Shown here one piece after another: positions 600 to 39,638 of a stretch of DNA of 64,000 nt. Source of the DNA: Escherichia coli (GTDB lineage Bacteria; Pseudomonadota; Gammaproteobacteria; Enterobacterales; Enterobacteriaceae). Where the stretch lies: NCBI RefSeq assembly GCF_036507355.1, contig NZ_AP027877.1; one strand, given 5' to 3'. The stretch's first letter is position 1. Each line of letters starts with the position of its first letter. A program made the position numbers and the translations under genes. A model generated the notes under the pieces. That model was given only the letters and a program-made list of their open reading frames with translations. It was not told the origin of the DNA and ran no database searches.

Positions 600-1583
600 A
601 TGCCTAAAAAAATGAGAACAACCCGTAATCTATTATTAATGGCTACGCTATTAGGTAGCGCTTTATTTGCCAGGGCTGCGGATAAAGAAATGACCATTGG
701 CGCAATATACCTTGATACTCAGGGATATTACGCTGGAGTGCGTCAGGGCGTTCAGGATGCGGCAAAAGATTCTTCAGTACAGGTACAGTTAATTGAAACT
801 AACGCCCAGGGTGATATTTCGAAAGAAAGTACCTTTGTTGATACCCTCGTGGCGCGTAATGTCGATGCTATTATTTTATCGGCAGTGTCTGAAAATGGCA
901 GTAGCCGTACCGTTCGTCGCGCCAGTGAAGCGGGTATTCCGGTGATTTGCTACAACACCTGTATTAATCAAAAGGGTGTCGATAAATATGTCTCGGCATA
1001 TCTGGTGGGTGACCCGCTGGAATTTGGTAAAAAACTGGGTAACACTGCCGCCGATTATTTTATTGCCAACAAAATTGACCAGCCGAAAATTGCCGTCATC
1101 AATTGCGAAGCCTTTGAAGTTTGTGTGCAGCGACGTAAAGGATTTGAAGAAGTATTAAAATCCCGCGTTCCCGGCGCGCAAATTGTCGCTAATCAGGAAG
1201 GGACTGTTTTAGATAAAGCGATTTCCGTTGGTGAAAAACTGATTATCTCCACGCCGGATCTCAACGCCATTATGGGGGAATCGGGCGGTGCGACACTCGG
1301 CGCGGTAAAGGCGGTACGTAATCAAAATCAGGCCGGAAAAATTGCTGTTTTCGGTTCGGATATGACCACTGAAATTGCTCAGGAGCTGGAAAACAATCAG
1401 GTGCTGAAAGCGGTAGTGGATATTTCCGGTAAGAAAATGGGCAATGCTGTTTTCGCGCAAACATTGAAAGTTATCAATAAACAAGCCGACGGTGAAAAAG
1501 TGATTCAGGTGCCTATCGATCTCTATACCAAAACGGAAGACGGTAAACAGTGGCTGGCAACGCACGTTGATGGTCTGCCCTAA
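600..1583 (+). CDS. yphF: ABC transporter periplasmic sugar-binding protein
   Basis: 327-aa ORF with signal peptide, AGGAGG 7 nt upstream of ATG; periplasmic binding protein fold; synteny. Confidence 0.9.
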   Translation: MPKKMRTTRNLLLMATLLGSALFARAADKEMTIGAIYLDTQGYYAGVRQGVQDAAKDSSVQVQLIETNAQGDISKESTFVDTLVARNVDAIILSAVSENGSSRTVRRASEAGIPVICYNTCINQKGVDKYVSAYLVGDPLEFGKKLGNTAADYFIANKIDQPKIAVINCEAFEVCVQRRKGFEEVLKSRVPGAQIVANQEGTVLDKAISVGEKLIISTPDLNAIMGESGGATLGAVKAVRNQNQAGKIAVFGSDMTTEIAQELENNQVLKAVVDISGKKMGNAVFAQTLKVINKQADGEKVIQVPIDLYTKTEDGKQWLATHVDGLP

Positions 1584-1605
1584 TCGCTGATTCGCAGAGG
1601 TCCCT

Positions 1606-3117
1606 ATGTTCACGGCAACAGAGGCAGTCCCGGTAGCAAAAGTGGTGGCAGGAAATAAGCGTTATCCCGGCGTCGTTGCGTTGGATAACGTTAACTTCAC
1701 GCTCAATAAAGGCGAGGTTCGTGCGCTGTTAGGCAAAAACGGCGCGGGCAAATCGACCCTCATTCGAATGCTTACCGGCAGTGAACGTCCGGATAGCGGT
1801 GAAATCTGGATTGGCGAGACGCGACTGGAAGGTGACGAAGCTACGCTGACTCGCCGTGCCGCTGAACTGGGGGTACGCGCGGTTTATCAGGAGTTAAGTC
1901 TGGTGGAAGGGCTGACGGTGGCGGAAAACCTCTGCCTCGGTCAGTGGCCCCGCCACAACGGCATGATTGATTACCTGCAAATGGCGCAGGATGCCCAACG
2001 TTGCTTACAGGCGCTGGGCGTTGACGTTAGTCCTGAACAACTTGTTTCAACACTAAGCCCGGCGCATAAGCAGCTGGTGGAAATTGCGCGGGTGATGAAG
2101 GGCGAGCCGCGCGTGGTCATTCTTGATGAACCTACCAGTTCGCTTGCGAGTGCGGAAGTTGAACTGGTGATAAGCGCGGTGAAAAAGATGTCGGCACTGG
2201 GCGTGGCGGTGATTTATGTCAGCCACCGGATGGAAGAAATTCGCCGCATTGCCTCCTGTGCCACCGTTATGCGCGACGGGCAGGTGGCTGGCGATGTGAT
2301 GCTCGAAAACACTTCCACGCATCATATTGTGTCGCTAATGCTAGGGCGCGATCACGTTGATATTGCGCCGGTTGCACCTCAGGAAATTGTGGATCAGGCC
2401 GTGCTGGAAGTCCGTGCGTTACGCCATAAGCCCAAGCTGGACGACATCAGCTTTACGCTACGTCGTGGCGAAGTGCTCGGCATTGCTGGCCTGCTGGGGG
2501 CAGGACGCAGTGAATTGCTGAAAGCGATTGTTGGGCTGGAGGAGTATGAACAGGGCGAAATTGTTATCAACGGCGAGAAAATCACGCACCCCGATTACGG
2601 CGACATGCTGAAACGCGGCATTGGCTATACGCCAGAAAACCGCAAAGAAGCGGGGATCATTCCCTGGCTGGGCGTTGACGAAAATACAGTGCTGACTAAT
2701 CGGCAAAAAATTAGCGCCAACGGCGTGCTGCAATGGTCCACCATCCGCCGCCTGACCGAAGAGGTGATGCAGCGGATGACGGTTAAGGCCGCCAGTAGCG
2801 AAACGCCCATCGGTACGCTTTCTGGCGGCAATCAGCAAAAAGTGGTGATCGGTCGTTGGGTCTATGCCGCCAGCCAGATTTTGTTGCTCGACGAGCCGAC
2901 GCGCGGCGTCGATATCGAAGCCAAACAGCAGATTTACCGTATTGTCCGTGAGCTGGCTGCCGAAGGAAAAAACGTGGTGTTTATCTCCAGTGAAGTGGAG
3001 GAGTTACCGCTGGTGTGCGACCGCATTCTGTTGTTACAGCACGGTACGTTCTCGCAGGAGTTTCACGCTCCGGTCAATGTGGATGAGCTGATGTCCGCCA
3101 TTCTGTCTGTGCACTGA
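1606..3117 (+). CDS. yphE: ABC transporter ATP-binding protein (duplicated ATPase domains)
   Basis: 503-aa ORF with two Walker A motifs (GKNGAGKST, GLLGAGRSE) and LSGG signatures. Confidence 0.92.
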   Translation: MFTATEAVPVAKVVAGNKRYPGVVALDNVNFTLNKGEVRALLGKNGAGKSTLIRMLTGSERPDSGEIWIGETRLEGDEATLTRRAAELGVRAVYQELSLVEGLTVAENLCLGQWPRHNGMIDYLQMAQDAQRCLQALGVDVSPEQLVSTLSPAHKQLVEIARVMKGEPRVVILDEPTSSLASAEVELVISAVKKMSALGVAVIYVSHRMEEIRRIASCATVMRDGQVAGDVMLENTSTHHIVSLMLGRDHVDIAPVAPQEIVDQAVLEVRALRHKPKLDDISFTLRRGEVLGIAGLLGAGRSELLKAIVGLEEYEQGEIVINGEKITHPDYGDMLKRGIGYTPENRKEAGIIPWLGVDENTVLTNRQKISANGVLQWSTIRRLTEEVMQRMTVKAASSETPIGTLSGGNQQKVVIGRWVYAASQILLLDEPTRGVDIEAKQQIYRIVRELAAEGKNVVFISSEVEELPLVCDRILLLQHGTFSQEFHAPVNVDELMSAILSVH

Positions 3118-18139: not shown

Positions 18140-18250
18140 TAAAAAGAATTCAGAATCAGGCCGGAGTGCTAAATACTCCGTAAACACGGTCGTACATCCA
18201 GCCGGTAGCCTGGTTCCTTGCATTGAGTGATGTACGGAGTTTATAGAGCA

Positions 18251-23246: not shown

Positions 23247-23490
23247 TTTCCGCGTCATGCTTCACGCCGCAGATGCGTTGGCTGCGCTCGTTCACCCCAG
23301 TCACATAGTTATCTATGCTCCTGGGGCTTCACTCACTTGCCACGTGATTCGGCCTTTTGGCCTCACCCCTCCGGGGCCAGCGCAAGCGCTGTTCAAAACG
23401 CAATGCGTTTTGTCCTGCAACGCGAATCATTTAGCGGAAAAATCCTGGGGCTGCCAACTGGCGGCCCTTTTACAAAGAAGGATAACTAAA

Positions 23491-24774
23491 ATGACAGAAG
23501 CGATGAAGATTACCCTCTCTACCCAACCTGCCGACGCGCGCTGGGGAGAAAAAGCAACTTACAGCATTAATAATGACGGCATTACCCTGCATTTGAACGG
23601 GGTAGACGATCTGGGGCTGATCCAGCGTGCGGCGCGCAAGATTGACGGTCTGGGCATCAAGCATGTTCAGTTAAGCGGTGAAGGCTGGGATGCGGATCGC
23701 TGCTGGGCATTCTGGCAAGGTTACAAAGCCCCGAAAGGCACGCGTAAAGTGGAGTGGCCGGATCTGGACGATGCCCAGCGACAGGAACTGGATAACCGCC
23801 TGTTGATCATCGACTGGGTGCGTGACACCATCAACGCACCGGCGGAAGAGCTGGGGCCATCGCAACTGGCACAGCGTGCTGTTGATCTGATCAGCAACGT
23901 CGCAGGCGATCGTGTGACTTATCGGATCACCAAAGGCGAAGATCTGCGTGAGCAAGGTTATATGGGGCTGCACACCGTCGGACGCGGTTCAGAACGTTCT
24001 TCGGTATTGCTGGCGCTGGATTACAACCCAACTGGCGATAAAGAAGCGCCAGTGTACGCGTGCCTGGTAGGTAAAGGTATCACTTTTGACTCCGGCGGCT
24101 ACAGCATCAAACAGACTGCGTTTATGGACTCGATGAAGTCGGACATGGGCGGCGCGGCAACGGTTACCGGGGCGCTGGCATTTGCCATTACGCGCGGACT
24201 GAACAAGCGCGTGAAGCTGTTCCTCTGCTGTGCGGATAACCTGATTAGCGGCAATGCGTTCAAGCTGGGCGATATCATCACCTATCGCAACGGTAAAAAA
24301 GTTGAAGTGATGAACACTGATGCCGAAGGGCGTCTGGTGCTGGCCGATGGTCTGATTGATGCCAGTGCGCAGAAACCGGAACTGATCATTGATGCGGCGA
24401 CCCTCACCGGGGCGGCGAAAACTGCGCTGGGTAATGATTATCACGCGTTGTTCAGTTTTGACGATGCGCTTGCCGGTCGTTTGCTGGCGAGTGCCTCACA
24501 AGAGAACGAACCATTCTGGCGTCTGCCGCTGGCGGAATTCCACCGCAGCCAGCTGCCGTCTAACTTTGCCGAACTGAACAATACCGGAAGCGCGGCGTAT
24601 CCGGCAGGCGCGAGCACGGCGGCGGGCTTCCTGTCGCACTTTGTTGAGAACTATCAGCAAGGCTGGCTGCATATCGACTGCTCGGCGACTTACCGTAAAG
24701 CGCCGGTTGAACAGTGGTCTGCGGGTGCTACGGGACTTGGTGTGCGCACGATTGCTAATCTGTTAACGGCGTAA
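23491..24774 (+). CDS. pepB: Aminopeptidase B (M17 leucyl aminopeptidase family)
   Basis: Start [10 protein letters not shown] with AAGGA SD (427 aa); M17 signature NTDAEGRL; ORF track start 23257 is an upstream in-frame extension. Confidence 0.93.
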
Positions 24775-24780
24775 ACTAAT

Positions 24781-24888
<108 letters not shown>

Positions 24889-24916: not shown

Positions 24917-25693
24917 ATGTCCGAAACAAAAAATGAACTTGAAGACCTGCTGGAAAAAGCAGCAACCGAACCGGCGCACCGCCCGGCTTTTTTCCGTACT
25001 CTACTGGAATCCACCGTCTGGGTGCCTGGTACGGCGGCGCAGGGCGAGGCTGTGGTTGAAGAGAGCGCGCTTGATTTACAGCACTGGGAAAAAGAAGACG
25101 GCACCAGCGTCATTCCTTTTTTTACCTCGTTAGAAGCACTTCAACAGGCGGTTGACGGCGAACAGGCATTTGTTGTAATGCCCGTTCGCACATTGTTTGA
25201 GATGACCCTTGGCGAAACGCTCTTCCTTAATGCCAAACTGCCAACCGGTAAAGAATTTATGCCGCGTGAAATCAGTTTGTTGATTGGTGAAGAGGGAAAT
25301 CCGCTGAGCAGTCAGGAAGTACTGGAAGGCGGCGAATCGCTGATATTATCGGAAGTCGCAGAGCCGCCAGCACAAATGATTGATTCACTCACCACCTTAT
25401 TTAAAACCATTAAACCAGTGAAGCGTGCTTTTATCTGTTCAATTAAAGAGAACGAAGAGGCACAGCCTAATTTACTTATTGGTATTGAAGCCGATGGTGA
25501 TATCGAAGAAATTATTCAGGCGGCGGGAAGTGTAGCAACCGATACATTACCTGGCGATGAACCAATCGATATTTGCCAGGTGAAAAAAGGGGAAAAAGGA
25601 ATTAGCCATTTTATTACCGAACATATTGCGCCATTCTATGAACGTCGTTGGGGTGGTTTTTTGCGTGACTTTAAACAGAACCGGATAATCTAA
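24917..25693 (+). CDS. sseB: SseB (enhanced serine sensitivity protein B)
   Basis: ORF MSETKNELEDLL (258 aa); the ORF track start at 24908 is a GTG; synteny next to pepB. Confidence 0.88.
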   Translation: MSETKNELEDLLEKAATEPAHRPAFFRTLLESTVWVPGTAAQGEAVVEESALDLQHWEKEDGTSVIPFFTSLEALQQAVDGEQAFVVMPVRTLFEMTLGETLFLNAKLPTGKEFMPREISLLIGEEGNPLSSQEVLEGGESLILSEVAEPPAQMIDSLTTLFKTIKPVKRAFICSIKENEEAQPNLLIGIEADGDIEEIIQAAGSVATDTLPGDEPIDICQVKKGEKGISHFITEHIAPFYERRWGGFLRDFKQNRII

Positions 25694-25694
25694 A

Positions 25695-26000
25695 ATATGC
25701 CGCCCCAAAGGGCGGCATTCGGGCTTACCTGCTGTTCTGAAGGTTGTTAACCACCAGTAAATTGTTGCCGGAGAGACTCAGGTTATTATTTACCTCGGTT
25801 AACAGCGCACCAGAAACAATAAGTACGATACAAAAGCACCGTATCTTCATTGTGCGGTCCATGCGAAGACCGCATCACGACAGCACCACTGGCGATATTG
25901 CCGCGATAGCAAGCGCTGTGAAACACCTGCATTTACGGCCACGGAACATCCTTTCCTAAAGCCAGCGCCCGTTTGCGAGACGGCGGAAAGGGCCGGTGTC
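25695..26000 (-). ncRNA. ryfA: RyfA-like RNA, copy 1 (mRNA for a small hydrophobic protein); 5' end not determined
   Basis: Minus-strand hairpin gccgccc-tttg-gggcggc plus AUAUUUUA tail at about 25695-25722; location between sseB and sseA as for K-12 ryfA. Confidence 0.5.
25725..25850 (-). CDS. timP: TimP-like small hydrophobic protein, 41 aa (MKIRCFCIVLIVSGALLTEVNNNLSLSGNNLLVVNNLQNSR), copy 1
   Basis: Intact ATG...TAA ORF on the minus strand, below the 60-aa ORF-track cutoff; hydrophobic N-terminus; terminator immediately downstream; weak SD. Confidence 0.5.
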   Translation of the reverse strand: MKIRCFCIVLIVSGALLTEVNNNLSLSGNNLLVVNNLQNSR

Positions 26001-26034
26001 GATAATACGCTAAATAAACAATAATTACTCTCTT

Positions 26035-26063
26035 TTGCTTGACAAAAAGAGAGTTGCTGGCGA
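26035..26063 (+). promoter_or_regulatory. Candidate sigma70 promoter of the divergent sRNA, copy 1
   Basis: TTGACA at 26035-26040, 17-bp spacer, GAATAT at 26058-26063. Confidence 0.4.
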
Positions 26064-26067
26064 ATAT

Positions 26068-26177
26068 TGCTCTGCTGTGAAGCACCTGCGTTGCTCATGC
26101 AACACAAGTCAATCTGCTGGAGAGGCCGCGAACCAAACCGGCAACAAATAACCGCCTGATTTTGGCGGTTTTTTGTT
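26068..26177 (+). ncRNA. TimR/RyfB-like antisense sRNA candidate, copy 1
   Basis: Promoter-like element upstream, terminator ccgcc-tgattt-ggcgg-TTTTTT at 26150-26177; 5' segment complementary to the copy-1 RyfA 5' UTR. Confidence 0.45.
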
Positions 26178-26378
26178 GCTTAAAGAAAGTGAATTTACAT
26201 GTTTAAGTAATATCTTTTACCGGTTAGTATTTTTAATATTGAGCGGGATTTGTTTATATTTGTCTGAATTCGGACTAATAAGCCAGGTCATTTTAATATC
26301 GAACATATTGCGCCATTCTATGAACGTCGCTGGGATGGTTTTTTGCGTGACTTTAAACAGAACCGGATAATCTAAAAT

Positions 26379-26680
26379 ATGCCGCCCCAAAGGGCGGCAT
26401 TCGGGCTTACCTGCTGTTCTGAAGGTTGTTAACCACCAGTAAATTGTCGCCGGAGAGACTCCGGTTATTATTTACCTCGGTTAACAGCGCACCAGAAACA
26501 ATAAGTACGATACAGAAGCACCGTATCTTCATTGTGCGGTCCATGCGAAGACCGCATCAAGACAGCACCACTGGCGATATTGCCGCGATAGCAAGCACTG
26601 TGGGGTGCCTGTATTTACGGTCATGGAACATCCTTTCCTAAAGCCATCGCCCGTTTGCGAGACGGCGAAAAGGGCCATTA
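26379..26680 (-). ncRNA. ryfA: RyfA-like RNA, copy 2; 5' end not determined
   Basis: Second copy of the same terminator hairpin and ORF-bearing block. Confidence 0.45.
26407..26532 (-). CDS. timP: TimP-like small hydrophobic protein, 41 aa, copy 2 (two substitutions relative to copy 1: L24R, N29D)
   Basis: Intact ORF MKIRCFCIVLIVSGALLTEVNNNRSLSGDNLLVVNNLQNSR on the minus strand. Confidence 0.5.
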   Translation of the reverse strand: MKIRCFCIVLIVSGALLTEVNNNRSLSGDNLLVVNNLQNSR

Positions 26681-26756
26681 AGAATAATACTCTCATGTTT
26701 GAATAATTACTCTGTTTATTATCTTGACACAGCCAGGCATAAAAGAGAGTATTTCA

Positions 26757-26862
26757 ACACTGTGGGGTGCCTGCGTTGCTCCGGCAACACAAGTCAACCT
26801 GCTGGAAAGGCCGCGAACCAGACCAGCAATAAAAAACCGCCAAATTCGGCGGTTTTTTATTG
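26757..26862 (+). ncRNA. TimR/RyfB-like antisense sRNA candidate, copy 2
   Basis: TTGACA at 26724-26729; terminator accgcc-aaattc-ggcggt-TTTTTT at 26835-26862 (bidirectional, also serves sseA); 5' segment has a perfect 16-nt match to the copy-2 RyfA 5' UTR. Confidence 0.45.
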
Positions 26863-26874
26863 CCTGTAAAATAC

Positions 26875-27720
26875 TTATTTCACTGGCTCAACCGGTAAAT
26901 CTGCCCGCGCGCCCCATTCACTCCATGCGCCGTCGTACAGTTTCACGTTTGGCACATCCAGCGTCGCGAGTGCTAACAAAACCACGGCTGCCGTTACACC
27001 AGAGCCGCAGCTGACGATAATTGGTTTGTCGTAGCTGACGCCGCGACCAAAAAATATCGCATCCAGTTCATCGGTCGTTTTTAGTTCGCCTTCGCGCACC
27101 AGTTCCGTCCACGGAACGTTCAATGCACCGGGAATATGTCCGCGACGTAAACCTGGGCGAGGTTCATCAACTTCTGCGTTAAAACGTGCAGCCGGGCGGG
27201 CATCAATAATTTGCGCCGTATTTTCATGGCTTGCCAATAACACATCGGTTACTTTCACCACTGCTTCAGGATTAAACGCGGCGTTAAACTCTCCTTCCGG
27301 CAGCTCTACTGCACCTTCTTCTAACAACAGATCATCGCGCTGCCAGCCTGCAAGTCCACCCCCCAGAATCGACACTTTCTCTACACCAAAGGTGCGCAGC
27401 ATCCACCATGCTCGTGGGGCTGAGAAAAGATTACCTTCGTCATAGACAATCAGGTGCTTATCCTGGTTAACGCCTAATTCACGCATCGCCACGGCGAACG
27501 TTTCCGGGCGCGGCAGCATGTGCGGAAGCGGGGAAGTGTGATCAGAAAGCGCTTCGATATCAAAAAACACTGCGCCGGGAATATGTCCATTCAGATACTC
27601 CTGAGCAACGTTACGATCTTCCTGTCCAGGCGACGCCATGCGGGCATCGATAATCTGAATTTCCGGGTCATCAATATGTTCGGCGAGCCAGTCGGCTCCT
27701 ACAAACCATGTCGTGGACAT
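26875..27720 (-). CDS. sseA: 3-mercaptopyruvate sulfurtransferase (tandem rhodanese domains)
   Basis: Start MSTTWFVGADWL (281 aa); rhodanese active-site Cys (CGSGVTA); ORF track extends upstream to 27879. Confidence 0.93.
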   Translation of the reverse strand: MSTTWFVGADWLAEHIDDPEIQIIDARMASPGQEDRNVAQEYLNGHIPGAVFFDIEALSDHTSPLPHMLPRPETFAVAMRELGVNQDKHLIVYDEGNLFSAPRAWWMLRTFGVEKVSILGGGLAGWQRDDLLLEEGAVELPEGEFNAAFNPEAVVKVTDVLLASHENTAQIIDARPAARFNAEVDEPRPGLRRGHIPGALNVPWTELVREGELKTTDELDAIFFGRGVSYDKPIIVSCGSGVTAAVVLLALATLDVPNVKLYDGAWSEWGARADLPVEPVK

Positions 27721-38409: not shown

Positions 38410-39528
38410 ATGCATAACCAGGCTCCAATTCAACGTAGAAAATCAACACGTATTTACGTTGGGAATGTGCCGATTGGCGATGGTGCTCCCATCGCCGTAC
38501 AGTCCATGACCAATACGCGTACGACAGATGTCGAAGCAACGGTCAATCAAATCAAGGCGCTGGAACGCGTTGGCGCTGATATCGTCCGTGTCTCCGTACC
38601 GACGATGGACGCGGCAGAAGCGTTCAAACTCATCAAACAGCAGGTTAACGTGCCGCTGGTGGCTGACATCCACTTCGACTATCGCATTGCGCTGAAAGTA
38701 GCGGAATACGGCGTCGATTGTCTGCGTATTAACCCTGGCAATATCGGTAATGAAGAGCGTATTCGCATGGTGGTTGACTGTGCGCGCGATAAAAACATTC
38801 CGATCCGTATTGGCGTTAACGCCGGATCGCTGGAAAAAGATCTGCAAGAAAAGTATGGCGAACCGACGCCGCAGGCGTTGCTGGAATCCGCCATGCGCCA
38901 TGTTGATCATCTCGATCGCCTGAACTTCGATCAGTTCAAAGTCAGCGTGAAAGCGTCTGACGTCTTCCTCGCTGTTGAGTCTTATCGTTTGCTGGCAAAA
39001 CAAATCGATCAGCCGTTGCATCTGGGGATCACCGAAGCCGGTGGTGCGCGCAGCGGGGCAGTAAAATCCGCCATTGGTTTAGGTCTGCTGCTGTCTGAAG
39101 GCATCGGCGACACGCTGCGCGTATCACTGGCGGCCGATCCGGTCGAAGAGATCAAAGTCGGTTTCGATATTTTGAAATCGCTTCGTATCCGTTCGCGAGG
39201 TATCAACTTCATCGCCTGTCCGACCTGTTCGCGTCAGGAGTTTGATGTTATCGGTACGGTTAACGCGCTGGAGCAACGCCTGGAAGATATCATCACTCCG
39301 ATGGACGTTTCGATTATCGGCTGCGTGGTGAATGGCCCAGGTGAGGCGCTGGTTTCTACACTCGGCGTCACCGGCGGCAACAAGAAAAGCGGCCTCTATG
39401 AAGATGGCGTGCGCAAAGACCGTCTGGACAACAACGATATGATCGACCAGCTGGAAGCACGCATTCGTGCGAAAGCCAGTCAGCTGGACGAAGCGCGTCG
39501 AATTGACGTTCAGCAGGTCGAAAAATAA
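38410..39528 (+). CDS. ispG: HMBPP synthase IspG
   Basis: 372-aa ORF with Fe-S Cys ligands ([16 protein letters not shown]). Confidence 0.96.
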
Positions 39529-39638
39529 TAACGTGATGGGAAGCGCCTCGCTTCCCGTGTATGATTGAACCCGCATAGCTCCCGAAACATTGAGGGAAGC
39601 GTTGAGGGTTCATTTTTATATTCAGAAAGAGAATAAAC

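Follow-up and report, generated by a model that had tools for sequence, protein, structure and literature searches.

A probable two-unit timPR (ryfA) toxin-antitoxin array between sseB and sseA in an Escherichia coli chromosome

In Shigella dysenteriae, Fris et al. (2017) described two tandem genes, ryfA1 and ryfA2, which share 95% identity, their main difference being a 5-nt variable region (PMC5333039). A divergent gene of ~100 nt, ryfB, accompanies each ryfA; both RyfA RNAs were shown by reverse transcription PCR and RyfB by RNA sequencing, and when RyfA1 is overproduced, ompC mRNA and spread from cell to cell are both lost (PMC5333039). The gene was renamed timP once it had been shown to encode a toxic inner-membrane protein, repressed by the divergent small RNA (sRNA) TimR through pairing with the 5′ untranslated region (5′UTR) of the mRNA (PMC7667032). 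In Salmonella, the TimP protein, its toxicity and its membrane targeting have been demonstrated (PMC7667032), and overexpression has been shown to cause toxicity and leakage of the membrane, with TimR repressing translation (PMC7667032, PMC11228461). The timP mRNA is unprocessed; its translation needs a pseudoknot between stem-loops SL1 and SL3 and a long-range pairing that frees the Shine-Dalgarno (SD) sequence from SL4, and TimR acts by binding to SL2, which destabilises the pseudoknot (PMC11228461, PMC13000454). Here we analyse the corresponding locus in a 64,000-nt stretch of Escherichia coli DNA (contig NZ_AP027877.1 of assembly GCF_036507355.1; hereafter the window), where a reading made from the sequence alone (the sequence-only reading) had proposed a tandem duplication of a ryfA/timP-like type I toxin module with its divergent sRNA. 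The region very probably holds two tandem units of the enterobacterial timPR (ryfA/TimP-TimR) type I toxin-antitoxin module.

Paralogous toxin-sRNA pairs, tandem or dispersed, in which differences in the pairing region give cognate-specific repression are familiar from the E. coli type I loci ibs/sib, ldr/rdl and zorO/orzO. The toxins and RNAs of those loci are unrelated to timPR, and most of their antitoxins are cis-antisense or act on processed mRNAs, whereas control of the timP mRNA works through a structural switch and involves no processing. The system and its arrangement are already known. Because the module, its mechanism and the two-copy layout have been published, the latter for S. 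dysenteriae (PMC5333039), and because standard E. coli annotation pipelines label both toxins, the array counts for little as a discovery; the two toxin-plus-antisense pairs that the sequence-only reading held to be worth characterising are present, in an organisation that had already been characterised. Shuffled specificity alleles, orphan TimR genes and structure-breaking variants in the second timP gene are modest additions.

The coding sequences of sseB (24917-25693, plus strand) and sseA (26875-27720, minus strand), taken from the list of open reading frames (ORFs) and represented by RefSeq genes of 777 and 846 nt at homologous loci, border a gap of 1182 bp between the end of sseB at 25693 and the end of sseA at 26875. 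Two homologous units lie inside, the left border of unit 1 being the 3′ end of sseB, and the gene order is sseB, timP1, TimR1, spacer, sseB′ piece, timP2, TimR2, sseA. Both units are contained in positions 25607-26885 in a 682-bp register. Repeat finding returned a direct repeat of 97% identity over 300 nt (25607-25906 versus 26289-26588) and an ungapped one of 73% (26062-26198 versus 26747-26883), with spacings of 682-685 bp, and ORF translation placed the start codons of the two 41-codon ORFs at 25850 and 26532, offset by exactly the 682 bp that had been claimed. A retained 3′ stretch of sseB, previously put at about 70 bp and taken to mark the duplication junction, is indeed present, but it measures 87 bp (26289-26375, plus strand, corresponding to 25607-25693), with the junction at 26288/26289. 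Identity between the units is 95.4% in this piece, reaches 97.6% in the ORF, the most conserved segment, amounts to 94.4% over the whole timP mRNA and 90.4% in its 5′UTR, and falls to 82.9% in TimR and 56.8% in the divergent promoter region. The earlier statement that the 3′ halves are about 80% similar needs correction: the divergence is not uniform and is greatest in the promoter region and the sRNA 5′ end.

RefSeq annotation of homologous loci represents the sseB′ piece as an sseB pseudogene fragment. The region of E. coli TB06052, which is 99.0% identical, is annotated in the order sseB, timP, sseB pseudogene fragment, timP, sseA, and two timP genes with an sseB fragment are likewise annotated in all other arrays fetched. 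Among 5426 complete E. coli genomes compared, the closest are 99.0-99.3% identical to the window and none is identical. A tandem repeat of this kind could in principle be an assembly artefact in which two alleles were collapsed or joined. We found no support for such an artefact, the sole concern being that repeats of ~680 bp exceed short-read length, and we regard it as exceedingly improbable: over 10,962 bp, array included, an independent NCBI assembly (GCA_016660925.1) agrees at 99.99% identity, the same contiguous junction occurs in 156 complete E. coli genomes from many sources, the timP copy count agrees exactly with the junction count, and experiments in S. dysenteriae detected each of the two RNAs (PMC5333039). 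The duplication noted from the sequence alone is thus no product of assembly.

Both units belong to the ryfA family over the full length of the mRNA. The Rfam model RF00126 (gathering score 80) matches timP1 at 25692-25996 with 313.8 bits and timP2 at 26374-26678 with 315.1 bits, in each case on the minus strand and over model positions 1-296 of 296. Following the variable-region names of the Shigella work (PMC5333039), timP1 carries TGTTT (RyfA2 type; allele A) and timP2 carries CACCC (RyfA1 type; allele B). Within each mRNA the 41-codon minus-strand ORF is intact, MKIRCFCIVLIVSGALLTEVNNNLSLSGNNLLVVNNLQNSR at 25725-25850 in timP1 and MKIRCFCIVLIVSGALLTEVNNNRSLSGDNLLVVNNLQNSR at 26407-26532 in timP2, and both translations exceed the cut-off of 45 for the NCBIfam TimP family NF040796 (77.7 and 84.2 bits), the matches covering residues 1-39 of the 41. 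The N-terminus, MKIRCFCIVLIVSGALL, is hydrophobic and reads as signal-sequence-like. On the same strand, sequence search located a promoter −10 hexamer TATTAT for timP1 at 26002-26007, 6 nt upstream of the 5′ end of the Rfam match, and for timP2 at 26684-26689. The terminator scan gave an intrinsic terminator at 25718-25697 for timP1, with 9 pairs and a T run, 3 nt past the sseB stop codon, and one at 26400-26379 for timP2; in all, 12 terminator-like sites were listed versus 1.8 expected from shuffles. The ryfA/timP identity of the module, its two intact ORFs and the minus-strand hairpins that follow the sseB stop and its duplicated copy were therefore correctly recognised by the sequence-only reading. 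In this strain each unit would be transcribed from the minus strand into an mRNA of ~305 nt, whose 144-nt 5′UTR is expected to fold into SL1 to SL4 and whose ORF would encode a 41-residue inner-membrane protein, presumably toxic.

On the plus strand, each unit has a promoter motif and a terminator that frame an sRNA candidate of ~104 nt, in keeping with the ~100 nt suggested before. For TimR1, the promoter scan listed TTGACA, an 18-nt spacing and AATATT at 26039-26068 (10 of 12 consensus matches); the candidate spans 26075-26178, has its terminator at 26150-26170 and a fold z-score of −2.6, and corresponds to the ~100-nt RyfB transcripts of S. dysenteriae (PMC5333039). For TimR2, sequence search and direct reading gave TTGACA (26724-26729), 18 nt and AGTATT (26748-26753), a layout that recurs in the TimR genes of K-12 and of other alleles; the candidate spans 26760-26863, with a terminator formed by an inverted repeat at 26826-26863 and a fold z-score of −4.05. 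Sub-threshold Rfam matches over the TimR2 terminator (AgrB, RNAI and others) were set aside as terminator look-alikes.

In both units the 5′ end of the divergent sRNA is complementary, at sequence level, to SL2 of the neighbouring timP 5′UTR, the published TimR site on the timP mRNA (PMC11228461). The predicted TimR1 site lies at 25915-25934 (minus strand; mRNA nt 63-82) and forms an uninterrupted 20-bp helix with the TimR1 5′ end, and the predicted TimR2 site lies at 26596-26611 (minus strand), where 16 nt pair perfectly with the RNA of plus-strand positions 26758-26773. Predicted duplex energies are −36.7 kcal/mol for TimR1-timP1 and −37.4 kcal/mol for TimR2-timP2, compared with −15.8 kcal/mol for TimR1-timP2 and −25.3 kcal/mol for TimR2-timP1, giving the cognate pairs an advantage of 11-21 kcal/mol, and a second calculation reproduced this pattern. 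The variable region sits in SL2, and the neighbouring sRNA 5′ end changes along with it; the units carry different specificity alleles, TGTTT in unit 1 and CACCC in unit 2, that co-vary with their own sRNAs. Because of this co-variation, each TimR is predicted to repress mainly its cognate toxin, and the two pairs may be orthogonal in vivo to some degree.

The array is closest to that of S. dysenteriae. In both, the two copies stand in tandem between sseB and sseA with ~95% identity (94.4% here), carry the same variable regions CACCC and TGTTT, and have a divergent sRNA of ~100 nt whose complementarity overlaps the variable region; the ryfA1/ryfA2 pair that the sequence-only reading ascribed to Shigella is borne out by the published work, which adds the divergent ryfB1/ryfB2 (PMC5333039). 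The accounts differ in that the 2017 paper took RyfA as non-coding, the TimP ORF being recognised in 2020, and the loci in that copy 2 of the window has two private 5′UTR substitutions. With timPR of Salmonella Typhimurium the window shares RF00126, NF040796, a divergent sRNA directed at SL2 and the conserved SL1-SL4 fold with the pseudoknot between sites 1 and 3. The single module of Salmonella encodes a 38-residue TimP and has an additional gene, STM2534, next to it, whereas the window has two modules, 41-residue proteins and different recognition sequences.

A different account of the locus holds that the ~305-nt RNAs act mainly in trans as regulatory sRNAs (RyfA1 and RyfA2) whose targets are set by the variable region, so that the duplication would represent regulatory diversification rather than toxin dosage. 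The loss of ompC mRNA and of cell-to-cell spread on RyfA1 overproduction (PMC5333039), the phenotypes of ryfA deletion in uropathogenic and avian pathogenic E. coli (PMC8205139, PMC13188913, PMC10664665) and the position of the variable region in an exposed loop, SL2, agree with it. It nevertheless appears distinctly improbable to us, given that the ORF is the segment best conserved between the units, that both ORFs score above the TimP family cut-off, that TimP is an established toxic membrane protein in Salmonella (PMC7667032) and that the variable region co-varies with the neighbouring TimR, as predicted for a toxin-antitoxin recognition site; the trans-acting and toxin roles are, moreover, not mutually exclusive.

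We aligned 20 timP 5′UTRs and counted the 40 pairs of the published structure. The seven-pair pseudoknot was set at nt 30-36 with nt 104-110, derived from the Salmonella double mutants G33C+C34G and G102C+C103G with a numbering offset of +2, which was itself inferred from the Salmonella mutants M2 and M2′. Across the 20 sequences, 98.8% of the cells of the published fold and pseudoknot are paired, compared with 35-48% when the partners are slid. SL2 shows compensatory changes, with pair 73-82 being A-U in 9 and G-C in 8 sequences, and SL4 is invariant. Unit 1 retains the complete SL1-SL4 fold, with the SD in SL4, and the complete SL1-SL3 pseudoknot; in unit 2, the pseudoknot and SL3 have each lost one pair. 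By analogy with Salmonella, each toxin would be translated only in the conformation in which the SL1-SL3 pseudoknot and the long-range pairing free the SD from SL4, and the divergent plus-strand sRNA of ~104 nt (TimR; RyfB in Shigella), made from the neighbouring promoter, would pair through its 5′ end with the SL2 loop region, destabilise the pseudoknot and so block translation.

Several points weigh against reading the region as two fully working modules. The −10 hexamer of TimR2, AGTATT, fails the strict consensus promoter scan, which does not list the promoter because position 2 of the hexamer is G, and the 5′ ends of TimR1 and TimR2 are inferred positions, placed from promoter motifs only. 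TimR2 can also pair with timP1 in a helix of 18 bp that includes five G-U wobbles, and its predicted energy of −25.3 kcal/mol is high because the G-rich TimR2 and the U-rich timP1 site allow these wobbles; TimR1 finds no pairing beyond 8 bp in the timP2 site, so that cross-pairing is asymmetric. Since TimR2 can form this helix with timP1, specificity may be one-sided rather than strict. RyfB1 lowers RyfA1, not RyfA2, in S. dysenteriae (PMC5333039), a result that by analogy argues that TimR2-timP1 cross-pairing would have little effect on RNA levels. In Salmonella, de-repression of chromosomal timP leaves growth unstopped (PMC7667032). Finally, timP2 may be poorly translated on account of its two substitutions that break pseudoknot and SL3 pairs, because single mutations in the same elements, the pseudoknot or SL1/SL3, abolish timP translation in Salmonella (PMC11228461, PMC13000454).

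These two substitutions are private to timP2. At 26647 (minus strand), mRNA nt 32 is changed from C to A in site 1 of the SL1-SL3 pseudoknot, producing the only unpaired cell at 32-108 among the 20 sequences, and at 26560 (minus strand), nt 119 is changed from G to U. The latter change disrupts C94-G119 in the lower part of the SL3 stem, leaves 94-119 unpaired in timP2 alone and is reported by cmscan as a non-standard pair. Predicted stabilities are reduced from −13.8 to −10.1 kcal/mol for the site 1-3 duplex and from −13.5 to −8.4 kcal/mol for the SL3 hairpin. No exact match to the timP2 5′UTR was found among the complete E. coli genomes, and the near-identical assembly GCA_016660925.1 has both substitutions. 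The effects expected from the Salmonella mutations, together with the lower predicted stabilities, could mean that only unit 1 is a working toxin gene and that the unit 2 ORF is kept but translationally crippled, an early step toward a K-12-like state in which the second toxin is gone and its sRNA gene left. Loss of the second toxin is common, with the K-12-type deletion junction found in 1679 genomes versus 156 with intact arrays. We consider this unlikely: the timP2 ORF, −10 hexamer, terminator, SL4 and cognate TimR2 are all intact, position 32 is not among the mutations tested in the Salmonella papers and its mapping depends on the inferred +2 offset, and no statistical case can be built on two substitutions when most 5′UTR positions are paired. 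The view that both copies are kept, put forward by the sequence-only reading, is thus upheld for ORFs, promoters and sRNAs, with the qualification that copy 2 has two private changes in RNA elements needed for translation. As natural pseudoknot and SL3 variants, they offer a ready test of the published structural-switch model.

The distribution of locus layouts was surveyed with junction-spanning queries under strict E-value limits in the 5426 complete E. coli genomes. Coverage alone is unsuitable for counting two copies, since nearby pieces are joined, and the timP copy count served as a cross-check. The contiguous junction of spacer, sseB′ and timP2, indicating at least two toxins, is present in 156 genomes (2.9%), five of which have two junctions and hence three toxins. 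The spacer occurs in 2157 genomes (40%). A K-12-type deletion junction with one toxin and two sRNA genes is found in 1679 (31%), and a second junction type, in which an orphan TimR belonging to a fourth allele comes immediately after the spacer, in 392 (7%). A single unit without the spacer accounts for ~60%, a value derived as the remainder. The timP mRNA query hit 5586 places in 5425 genomes, exactly 5425 + 156 + 5, and orphan or misplaced TimR genes are present in ~38% of genomes. Outside the survey, an exact-pattern scan of species-representative genomes with 25 conserved nt of timP gave one match in each of five loci, a pattern that missed most Escherichia representatives and does not amount to a cross-species survey of copy number; single-unit loci without the spacer were seen in E. 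whittamii, Escherichia sp. E1V33, a divergent E. coli and two Citrobacter genomes.

Full readings of 13 loci (arrays or variants) distinguish four recognition alleles, A (TGTTT), B (CACCC), C (CGCGT) and D (TGTAT), and every one of them has its own type of sRNA to match. The order A-B is found in this window and six other strains, A-C in sequence type (ST) 648 and C-A in LCP30S3_I5. In GF4-3 (NZ_CP053258.1, locus 1368-3100), one of the three-toxin genomes, three units stand in the order C-A-B, with three intact 41-codon ORFs and two identical spacer-plus-sseB′ junctions. In the ST648 genome (NZ_CP008697.1, locus 337-1114), sseB is annotated as frameshifted, and the first TimP of the A-C array carries C5S (MKIRSFC...). 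E7-1N7 has toxin C and then toxin D, the latter followed by an A-like TimR and then the D TimR, and in KK19-02 toxin C stands with a C-type TimR, while a D-type TimR is present as an orphan. Allele D (mRNA TGTAT, sRNA GACGAGAUACACUUGC; KK19-02 locus 1315-1400, E7-1N7 locus 1940-2500) falls outside the published list of four variable regions in Shigella and Escherichia, CACCC, CCCCC, CGCGT and TGTTT (PMC5333039); its TimR is an orphan in 392 genomes and stands together with its toxin in E7-1N7. In the literature that discusses TimR, of which our coverage is incomplete, we found no mention of allele shuffling or orphan TimR genes.

E. coli K-12 agrees with the window in position, in its allele A toxin, in the spacer and in the start of the sseB piece, and differs in having lost the second toxin. 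Its locus (837-1420, comparable to window 25692-26863) contains toxin A, a C-type TimR, the spacer and an A-type TimR, both TimR-like genes having intact promoters and terminators; the deletion begins ~20 bp inside the sseB piece and extends as far as the 5′ end of the second mRNA. The statement that K-12 carries a single ryfA is correct in that there is one timP, but the locus is no simple single module, since the spacer, ~20 bp of the sseB piece and another TimR-like gene are all retained. The adjacent TimR, of allele C, has a predicted energy of −25.7 kcal/mol with the K-12 toxin mRNA, compared with about −37 kcal/mol for the cognate allele A TimR, which lies ~320 bp beyond the adjacent non-cognate one. 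Because strains vary in copy number and recognition allele and the sRNA beside the toxin may be non-cognate, the results of deletion or overexpression can be misread if only one timP/timR pair is presumed, which gives these data practical value for ryfA/timPR work in E. coli.

The allele distribution also bears on how the array arose. The sequence-only reading had concluded that the duplication is not recent, and the units do represent distinct, old specificity alleles; duplication in place followed by divergence is, however, not the sole possible origin, because the unit alleles also occur singly in other lineages and species. Alternatively, one founding duplication may have created the spacer-plus-sseB′ junction, after which pre-existing, much older alleles moved in and out by homologous recombination, gene conversion and unequal crossing-over. 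We regard this route as a serious possibility, somewhat short of an even chance. It is suggested by the same junction being shared by all arrays, whether of order A-B, A-C, C-A or C-A-B, by alleles found alone or in other species (B in Escherichia sp. E1V33 and in a divergent E. coli, C in E. whittamii, B-like ones in Citrobacter), by the mosaic identity of the units (95-98% in the sseB piece and ORF versus 57% in the promoter region) and by the non-cognate TimR that lies beside the toxin in K-12 and E7-1N7, with the cognate one further off. Gene conversion acting on the conserved part following an old duplication would nevertheless leave the same mosaic, and the basis is the full reading of 13 arrays or variants.

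The recognition alleles number at least four, the toxins per array range from one to three and their order varies, and orphan or misplaced TimR genes occur in ~38% of genomes, K-12 among them. On these grounds we tentatively suggest, as a more doubtful generalisation, that the sseB-sseA gap of E. coli and Shigella is a polymorphic cassette array of mutually orthogonal timP/TimR pairs. If it were, orphan sRNAs could confer immunity to incoming toxin alleles, a hierarchy among alleles could result from asymmetric G-U cross-pairing, and the second toxin of this window may already be silenced at the level of RNA structure.

The units are separated by an AT-rich spacer of 110 bp (26179-26288), which in E. 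coli genomes is always found at the sseB-sseA locus and which has no match elsewhere in the window region. The idea that it is a decayed sseA 3′ end was dropped for these reasons. The promoter scan listed a sigma-70-like motif inside the spacer (26233-26260, plus strand). An Rfam match to IS128 (RF00125, 228.6 bits), a family also present at the K-12 locus, lies at 26132-26342 (minus strand), where it is antisense to the TimR1 terminator, spans the AT-rich spacer and reaches 54 bp into the sseB′ piece; because of this span, the IS128 family appears to describe the duplication scar. A literature search for IS128 with sseA or sseB gave nothing relevant.

Elsewhere in the window, an exact 76-nt match to a terminal sequence that we take to be that of IS1 lies at 56162-56237 (minus strand), so that an IS1 copy presumably ends there. 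Between pepB and sseB, a palindrome at 24769-24813 resembles a repetitive extragenic palindromic element, and its match to naRNA4 is below threshold (40.3 bits versus a gathering score of 59.5). The other Rfam matches above threshold are ES036 (48098-48140, minus strand), AaHKsRNA22 (23348-23420, minus strand), the iscRS stability element (18140-18249, plus strand) and sroE (39528-39619, plus strand), the last two of which look like expected neighbours in this chromosomal region.

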